DNA of 36,574 bases from Escherichia coli (GTDB lineage Bacteria; Pseudomonadota; Gammaproteobacteria; Enterobacterales; Enterobacteriaceae), in NCBI RefSeq assembly GCF_003334335.1, contig NZ_QOWQ01000043.1. One strand, 5' to 3'. Positions 36,257 to 36,574 of this stretch are shown piece after piece. Each line of letters begins with the position of its first letter. Position 1 is the first letter of the stretch. A model generated the notes under the pieces. The model was not told the origin of the DNA. It saw nothing but the letters and a program-made list of their open reading frames with translations, and did no database searches. Position numbers and translations under genes: made by a program.

Positions 36257-36384
36257 ACTTACCTCAGCAATAAATGATTTACTAATGACTTTGGGGGCAT
36301 TATTGGCCTTGTGCAAGTCTTTTAGTATGCAAAAAAGCACCGTTTTGTGTGCGATTGCAGCAAAAAGGGTGAAAAAACAACAAA

Positions 36385-36445
36385 CAGAAAAAAAGATCAA
36401 AAAAATACTTGTGCAAAAAATTGGGATCCCTATAATGCGCCTCCG
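36385..36445 (+). promoter_or_regulatory. rRNA operon P1 promoter with A-tract UP element (rrnD by context)
   Basis: A-rich UP-like tract (AAAAAAAGATCAAAAAAATA), TTGTGC at 36409-36414, 16-bp spacer, TATAAT at 36431-36436, then GCGCCTCC discriminator-like sequence. Architecture typical of rrn P1. Confidence 0.8.
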
Positions 36446-36517
36446 TTGAGACGACAACGTGAAACACTTCACAGGATGGTCGGAACAACGAAGAGAAAAA
36501 AATCCTGAAATTCAGGG

Positions 36518-36545
36518 TTGACTCTGAAAGAGGAAAGCGTAATAT
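36518..36545 (+). promoter_or_regulatory. rRNA operon P2 promoter
   Basis: TTGACT at 36518-36523, 16-bp spacer, TAATAT at 36540-36545, about 110 bp downstream of P1, the usual P1-P2 spacing. Confidence 0.7.
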
Positions 36546-36574
36546 ACGCCACCTCGCGACAGTGAGCTGAAAGC

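Follow-up and report, generated by a model that had tools for sequence, protein, structure and literature searches.

Organization of the right-hand end of the window

The window is the whole 36,574-nt stretch of Escherichia coli DNA that was analysed (contig NZ_QOWQ01000043.1), and the region studied here is its last 318 nt, positions 36257-36574. To the left, the region borders yrdA, which is encoded on the minus strand (35702-36256). In the RefSeq annotation of K-12, where the DNA is identical, this gene specifies a protein of 184 aa from the gamma carbonic anhydrase family with hexapeptide repeats. The yrdA start codon ATG is found at 36256-36254 (minus strand, RefSeq annotation), and a GAGG Shine-Dalgarno motif (36262-36265, minus strand; context TGAGGTAAGTATG) precedes it at a distance of 5 nt.

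As the 5' end of yrdA is located at 36256 on the minus strand, the arrangement with the two plus-strand promoters, P1 and P2, is divergent, in agreement with the initial annotation. Between yrdA and the end of the window we find candidate Fis sites, an UP element, P1, a palindrome, P2 and the first part of a leader hairpin. The initial annotation had described tandem rRNA promoters with an UP element at the window edge, and all of these motifs are present at the positions proposed. It had also stated that the window ends before any rRNA gene; consistent with this, no rRNA or tRNA genes were found inside the window.

The P1 promoter and its UP element

The core of P1 is formed by the -35 hexamer TTGTGC (36409-36414), a spacer of 16 bp (36415-36430), the -10 hexamer TATAAT (36431-36436) and the G+C-rich discriminator GCGCCTCC (36437-36444), all on the plus strand. 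Each of these elements, as well as the A-tract UP element, is located exactly where it was originally reported. To compare the motifs with the paralogues, the window tail was aligned with the DNA preceding each of the seven rrn operons in NC_000913.3. In this alignment the P1 and P2 hexamers of the window line up with those of the other operons. The -35 of P1 is aligned with TTGTCA of rrnA, rrnB, rrnC and rrnG, while the -10 is invariant in the seven operons. The discriminator is delimited by the alignment with rrnB P1, and its GCGCC is invariant in the seven operons, as are the block CCCTATAATGCGCC and the P2 -35 sequence TTGACTCTG. The features by which an rrn P1 is recognized, i.e., TATAAT, a 16-bp spacer, a -35 that lines up with those of the other rrn P1 promoters and a GCGCC discriminator, are all found.

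The UP element of P1 covers -59 to -38 (36386-36407, plus strand, from sequence and alignment) and reads AGAAAAAAAGATCAAAAAAATA. UP elements are the region to which the C-terminal domains of the RNA polymerase alpha subunits bind. Here, 17 of the 22 positions are A and 19 are A or T, as expected from an A+T-rich UP element. The full UP consensus is matched at 11 of the 15 specified positions. The proximal half, AAAAAAATA, agrees with the proximal-subsite consensus at all positions (8/8), the best match among the seven operons. Both consensus sequences reportedly originate from Estrem et al. 1998/1999.

The start of P1 was set nine nucleotides after the -10, following rrnB P1, and this alignment predicts initiation at a G at 36445 on the plus strand (position 3429047 in NC_000913.3). 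The same numbering places the classical UP element of rrnB, AGAAAATTATTTTAAATTTCCT, at -59 to -38, which provides a check of the register. In the start column, rrnD has a G and the other six operons an A. In line with this, six rrn P1 promoters have been stated to initiate with ATP, and the rrnD P1 to respond to GTP (PMC9239199). The open complexes of rrnD P1 are described as short-lived and inhibited by ppGpp (bioRxiv 10.1101/2020.05.13.070375).

It could be argued that the promoter-like hexamers are functionless chance matches in A+T-rich intergenic DNA. A generic sigma-70 scan of 35000-36574 is compatible with this idea, since it detects a single site, P2, compared with 2.2 expected from shuffled sequences. 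P1 is missed by the scan because its -35 matches TTGACA at only 3 of 6 positions, and P1 was instead judged by aligning the paralogues and by searching for a composite pattern. This pattern, TTG-N19-TATAAT-GCGCC, matches exactly once in the 36.6-kb window, and with up to one mismatch only 0.02 matches are expected per window by chance. A second match, with one mismatch, is located upstream of rpsJ. Further, the hexamers are invariant both in the seven paralogues and in divergent E. coli lineages, a 16S gene follows in K-12, and the region is identical to an experimentally dissected promoter locus (PMC5110994). A chance origin is refuted by this homology and by the literature, and we regard it as vanishingly improbable.

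The conservation within the species was studied by aligning seven E. coli lineages taken from across the ranking by identity (99.1% down to 96.2%). In all seven, P1 shows no change between -37 and about +40, and P2 none between its -35 and the end of the window. The lineages differ in the far-upstream DNA, at -40 within the UP element and in the stretch separating the two promoters.

P2, the palindrome and the leader

P2 consists of the -35 hexamer TTGACT (36518-36523), which is invariant in the seven operons, a 16-bp spacer (36524-36539) and the -10 hexamer TAATAT (36540-36545), which is common to rrnE and rrnH, all on the plus strand. The distance from the -10 of P1 to the -10 of P2 is 109 bp, close to the separation of about 110 bp first estimated for the same hexamers and spacer. 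Thus, the region contains what is expected from an rrn P2: TTGACT, 16 bp and TA(A/T)TAT at about 110-120 bp from P1. Judging from the customary spacing, and from where the deletions in PMC5110994 end, transcription from P2 is predicted to start at the C at 36552-36553 on the plus strand.

Directly upstream of the P2 -35, and abutting it, is a perfect 13-bp palindrome, CCTGAAATTCAGG (36504-36516). The palindrome is common to rrnD, rrnE and rrnH and is not present in rrnA, rrnB, rrnC or rrnG. Two variants of it occur in other strains, one with an A-to-G change that creates a G-U pair and one with a change in the loop. In both variants a hairpin is still possible.

When the K-12 continuation is folded, a boxB-like leader hairpin of the rrn antitermination (nut-like) region is predicted from 36556, with a folding energy of -13.5 kcal/mol. 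The last part of the window, 36556-36574 (plus strand), covers the 5' arm and the loop of this hairpin but only three nucleotides of its 3' arm. In the same continuation boxA, TGCTCTTTAACAA, starts 12 nt on from the end of the window, and the 16S gene of K-12 begins 285 nt after the predicted P1 start.

Assignment to the rrnD operon

The region 36257-36574 is identical over all 318 nt (100%) to the intergenic DNA between yrdA and rrsD in K-12 MG1655, and the window tail can be located exactly in NC_000913.3, 5' of rrsD. The counterpart in K-12 is the rrnD P1-P2 region (rrsDp1, rrsDp2) at approximately 3,428,919-3,429,235 on the complement strand of NC_000913.3. The slightly longer segment 36100-36574 has a megablast match in all 5,426 complete E. 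coli genomes, and at least 80% of it is present in 5,424 of the 5,426. The segment is 100% identical in many strains, including K-12 MG1655.

In MG1655, whose tail is identical, the annotated 16S gene starts 156 nt beyond the end of the window. A 16S gene within about 300 bp past the end had been set beforehand as the point on which the promoter reading would stand or fall. The Rfam model SSU_rRNA_bacteria scores 1580 bits at the position of the MG1655 16S gene. The genes that follow downstream in MG1655 are, in order, 16S, tRNA-Ile, tRNA-Ala, 23S, 5S, tRNA-Thr and 5S. The 16S gene and the boxB-boxA-boxC leader that characterize an rRNA operon are thus present downstream in K-12 DNA with an identical tail. 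As the window stops before the 16S gene, and as the source strain is not K-12, the operon downstream of the window is read from these relatives.

The order Ile-Ala-23S-5S-Thr-5S together with a divergent yrdA identifies the operon as rrnD. The comparison with the seven rrn regions, suggested in the initial annotation as a way to assign the operon, gives the same answer. Upstream of P2, i.e., in the far-upstream region, the UP element and P1, the window matches only rrnD among the seven K-12 operons. Between -188 and -61, the identity to rrnD is 128/128, compared with at most 73/128 (57% or less) for each of the other six K-12 rrn operons. The P2 part is identical in rrnH as well, so it is P1, the DNA upstream of it and the neighbouring yrdA that decide the assignment. 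All characteristics of rrnD are found: the divergent yrdA, the unique UP element and P1 and, in MG1655, the Ile-Ala spacer and the 5S-Thr-5S end of the operon.

The literature describes rrnD in the same terms, with tandem P1 and P2 promoters, a P1 -10 of TATAAT (mutated to TCTAAC in that study) and Fis sites upstream of -60 (PMC5110994). We are therefore highly confident that 36257-36574 is the control region of the rrnD rRNA operon, divergently adjoining yrdA. It is the rrnD control region itself and not merely a relative of it, and as a feature it is ordinary and previously known.

Candidate Fis sites upstream of P1

Fis sites were expected between yrdA and P1. The region was scanned with the degenerate consensus GNNYRWWWWWYRNNC, using rrnB as a positive control, and the rrnB P1 sites at -71, -102 and -143 were recovered with 0-1 mismatch. 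In the window the scan returns three matches, each with two mismatches. The first, GGGTGAAAAAACAAC (36367-36381), is centred at -71, has the G and C ends and is the candidate for site I; it shares its alignment columns with Fis site I of rrnB, GGTTGAATGTTGCGC, and rrnA, rrnB, rrnC, rrnG and rrnH likewise have a match with G..C ends at -71. The second, CACCGTTTTGTGTGC (36338-36352), is centred at -100, close to site II of rrnB (-102), and is a weaker candidate as it is without the 5' G. The third, GGGGCATTATTGGCC (36294-36308), is centred at -144, has the G and C ends and is found at the position of rrnB site III (-143).

The matches at -71, -100 and -144 are at positions like those in rrnB. 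However, the rrnD matches are weak, and their number is borderline compared with shuffled sequences, as a fraction of about 0.03-0.05 of the shuffles reaches the observed count. The sequence alone is therefore suggestive of Fis sites but not conclusive. Fis footprints have reportedly been observed at all seven P1 promoters by Hirvonen et al. 2001.

The number and positions of the rrnD sites given here come from the consensus scan and from secondary citations. One study describes activation of the rrnD P1 by upstream-bound Fis and sets the Fis-site region as -397 to -60 (PMC5110994). From 3 to 5 Fis sites have been proposed per rrn promoter, with distinct roles for P1 and P2 (PMC4696680). The same paper reports that deletion of fis in W3110 leaves the activity of the 'rrnD' promoter at about 75% of wild type. 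Because of the rrnD/rrnE inversion in W3110 the operon names are ambiguous, and this figure is given no weight here. In papers that use W3110 names (PMC4696680, PMC5179076), 'rrnD' may denote a promoter other than the one adjacent to yrdA.

Open reading frames across the promoters

Two open reading frames extend into the promoter region, and each offers an alternative reading of it as coding DNA. The longer one is a 256-aa frame on the minus strand with a GTG start (35702-36472). If it were the real yrdA product, much of the region would be coding and not regulatory. The frame is indeed open for 85 codons upstream of the yrdA ATG in the window; it is also open from the same GTG in 5 of the 7 other E. 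coli lineages, and a longer GTG form exists in a sixth. However, the strains compared are 96-100% identical, so an open frame is uninformative. Among these strains, JEB8 is the only one that breaks the frame, by a 1-nt insertion.

The homologues clearly support the shorter protein. The alignment of crystallized YrdA (PDB 3TIO) covers residues 74-256 of the ORF, and that of the Salmonella orthologue (3R3R) begins at residue 72. None of the 67 relatives in the PDB extends beyond residue 66 towards the N terminus, so the N-terminal 72 residues are without support. The yrdA protein in RefSeq has 184 aa and not 256, and the GAGG is found 5 nt before the internal ATG at 36256. The additional N-terminal part is read from the strand opposite the A-tracts and the P1 core and is, for this reason, Phe-rich and of low complexity. 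The doubt that was initially expressed about the 256-aa frame was well founded. The 256-aa ORF is an artefact, and we consider it extremely unlikely that it represents the yrdA product.

The second frame is a 54-aa ORF on the plus strand (36285-36449), which would encode a small protein across the Fis sites, the UP element and P1. The frame is present in the window, PGAP calls a 78-aa version of it in JEB8 (WP_136511987.1), and it appears as a 'hypothetical protein' in other RefSeq records. However, most genomes have no annotation of it, its length shifts with a 1-nt indel between strains, and its Lys-rich composition comes from the A-tracts. In addition, the ORF is located upstream of and across the P1 start, and therefore the known transcripts do not contain the whole of it. 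This 'hypothetical protein' looks spurious, and a real small protein here is just as improbable as the 256-aa form of yrdA.

The stretch of about 190 bp between yrdA and P1 might in addition serve as the promoter or regulatory region of yrdA, coupling yrdA to Fis and growth rate. A sigma-70-like yrdA promoter was not found on the minus strand within 36257-36460, even with relaxed criteria, and we see such a second role as a rather doubtful, although conceivable, addition. The same stretch, together with P1, is reported to be necessary for the nucleolus-like clustering of rrn operons, through a factor binding close to the Fis sites (PMC5110994).

As the rrnD promoters have been dissected experimentally for decades, the locus adds nothing new to the understanding of rRNA regulation. 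The value of the analysis is in annotation quality control. Neither the 256-aa ORF nor the plus-strand 'hypothetical protein' should be called, as both cross one of the best-characterized promoters in biology. In addition, the right-hand end of the window is fixed as rrnD.

Other features of the window

The window begins (1-75) with the right terminus of IS100, a member of the IS21 family, ending in ...GGATCACTTTTCATCCGTCGTTGACA and inserted in gspM with the junction at 76. In K-12, gspM is intact at this position. In strain ETEC1730, IS100 is also inserted in gspM but 37 bp further in, and from this distance the two insertions look independent.

In gspD (minus strand, approximately 8169-8180), 33 bp or 11 codons are missing in frame compared with K-12 MG1655. 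The missing piece is present in MG1655 and in all E. coli records among the matches listed. It is located between two copies of TC(A/G)GCGGTAATG, a direct repeat with 11 of 12 positions identical when compared by eye, and these flanks suggest a deletion by slippage or recombination, or else an assembly artefact. Tandem Repeats Finder found nothing around the gap.

From 8181 to the end of the window (8181-36574), there are six SNPs compared with MG1655 (about 0.02%), at 8981, 10919, 11006, 31126, 32300 and 32556. The source strain is very closely related to K-12 but is not MG1655 itself.

The composite match upstream of rpsJ, at 12017-12049 on the plus strand, consists of TTGCGT, 16 bp, TATAAT and GCGCG and is located about 170 nt upstream of the gene. 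It is almost certainly the promoter of the S10 operon, with the same architecture of spacer and G+C-rich discriminator as an rrn P1. Further downstream, at 22942-23053 (plus strand), the Rfam family Alpha_RBS (RF00140) matches upstream of rpsM with 102.7 bits; this is the operator, already known, through which S4 controls translation of the alpha operon.

A model for transcription from the locus

In the following scheme, the start sites, the functions of Fis and the UP element, and the control by ppGpp and the initiating nucleotide are taken from the literature and general knowledge. They are placed on what was observed directly, i.e., the identity of the region, the motif positions, the conservation among the paralogues and the 16S gene downstream in K-12. 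RNA polymerase with sigma-70 would initiate at P1, at the G nine bases past the -10. The UP element (-59 to -38) would recruit the alpha C-terminal domains and make P1 strong, and Fis bound upstream, with its proximal site at -71, could contact alpha and activate P1 further. A short-lived open complex would result from the 16-bp spacer together with the non-consensus -35 and the G+C-rich discriminator. Through this complex P1 would respond to ppGpp/DksA as well as to the concentration of the initiating nucleotide, GTP in the case of rrnD.

P2 would provide basal expression at low growth rate. Transcripts from both P1 and P2 would traverse the boxB-boxA-boxC leader, and this nut-like leader is expected to load the antitermination complex.

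Comparison with known systems

A search of Rfam by E-value reveals similarity to RF02849, the Yersinia small RNA Ysr197, and it can be asked whether the stretch also yields a discrete small RNA of this type. The similarity is significant in both sequence and structure (90.5 bits, E = 4e-22), and it covers the window-equivalent positions 36366-36608, reaching boxA. However, the score is far below the gathering score of the family, 167, and at the gathering threshold Rfam finds nothing in the window tail. The match also takes in both promoters together with the UP element and Fis site I, DNA which is not transcribed from P1. Since promoter DNA that is not transcribed is included, the family is likely to be a fragment of a Yersinia rrn promoter and leader. 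Thus, RF02849 most likely models such a fragment and not an independent gene, and a discrete small RNA from this stretch is unlikely, although less so than either of the coding readings.

Among the paralogues, rrnH and rrnE are closest to the rrnD control region in the P2 part. From the P2 -35 to the end of the window rrnH is identical to rrnD (57/57), and rrnE is identical at 55 of 57 positions. Both have the palindrome and the TAATAT -10 in common with rrnD. However, they differ in the UP element, in the P1 -35, in the spacer and in everything upstream. The likeness in P2 means that this part alone cannot assign the operon.

The comparison with rrnB P1 shows a common architecture. Both have an UP element at -59 to -38, a 16-bp spacer, TATAAT, GCGCC, a start nine nucleotides past the -10, a Fis-like site at -71 in the same columns and a P2 downstream. 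The differences are found in the details. The -35 is TTGTGC in rrnD and TTGTCA in rrnB. The UP element of rrnD is a run of A with a proximal match of 8/8, while rrnB has mixed A/T tracts and a match of 3/8. The predicted start base is G in rrnD and A in rrnB, and the distance between P1 and P2 is 109 bp in rrnD but 119 bp in rrnB. Finally, the Fis-like matches are weaker in rrnD, and the upstream sequences are unrelated (64/128). The differences in the -35, the A-run UP element, the G start and the 10-bp shorter distance between P1 and P2 are documented properties of rrnD.

With rrnD of K-12, the likeness includes all 318 nt, the divergent yrdA and, in K-12, the same operon downstream. There is no difference within 36257-36574, and the differences from MG1655 are all located elsewhere in the window.
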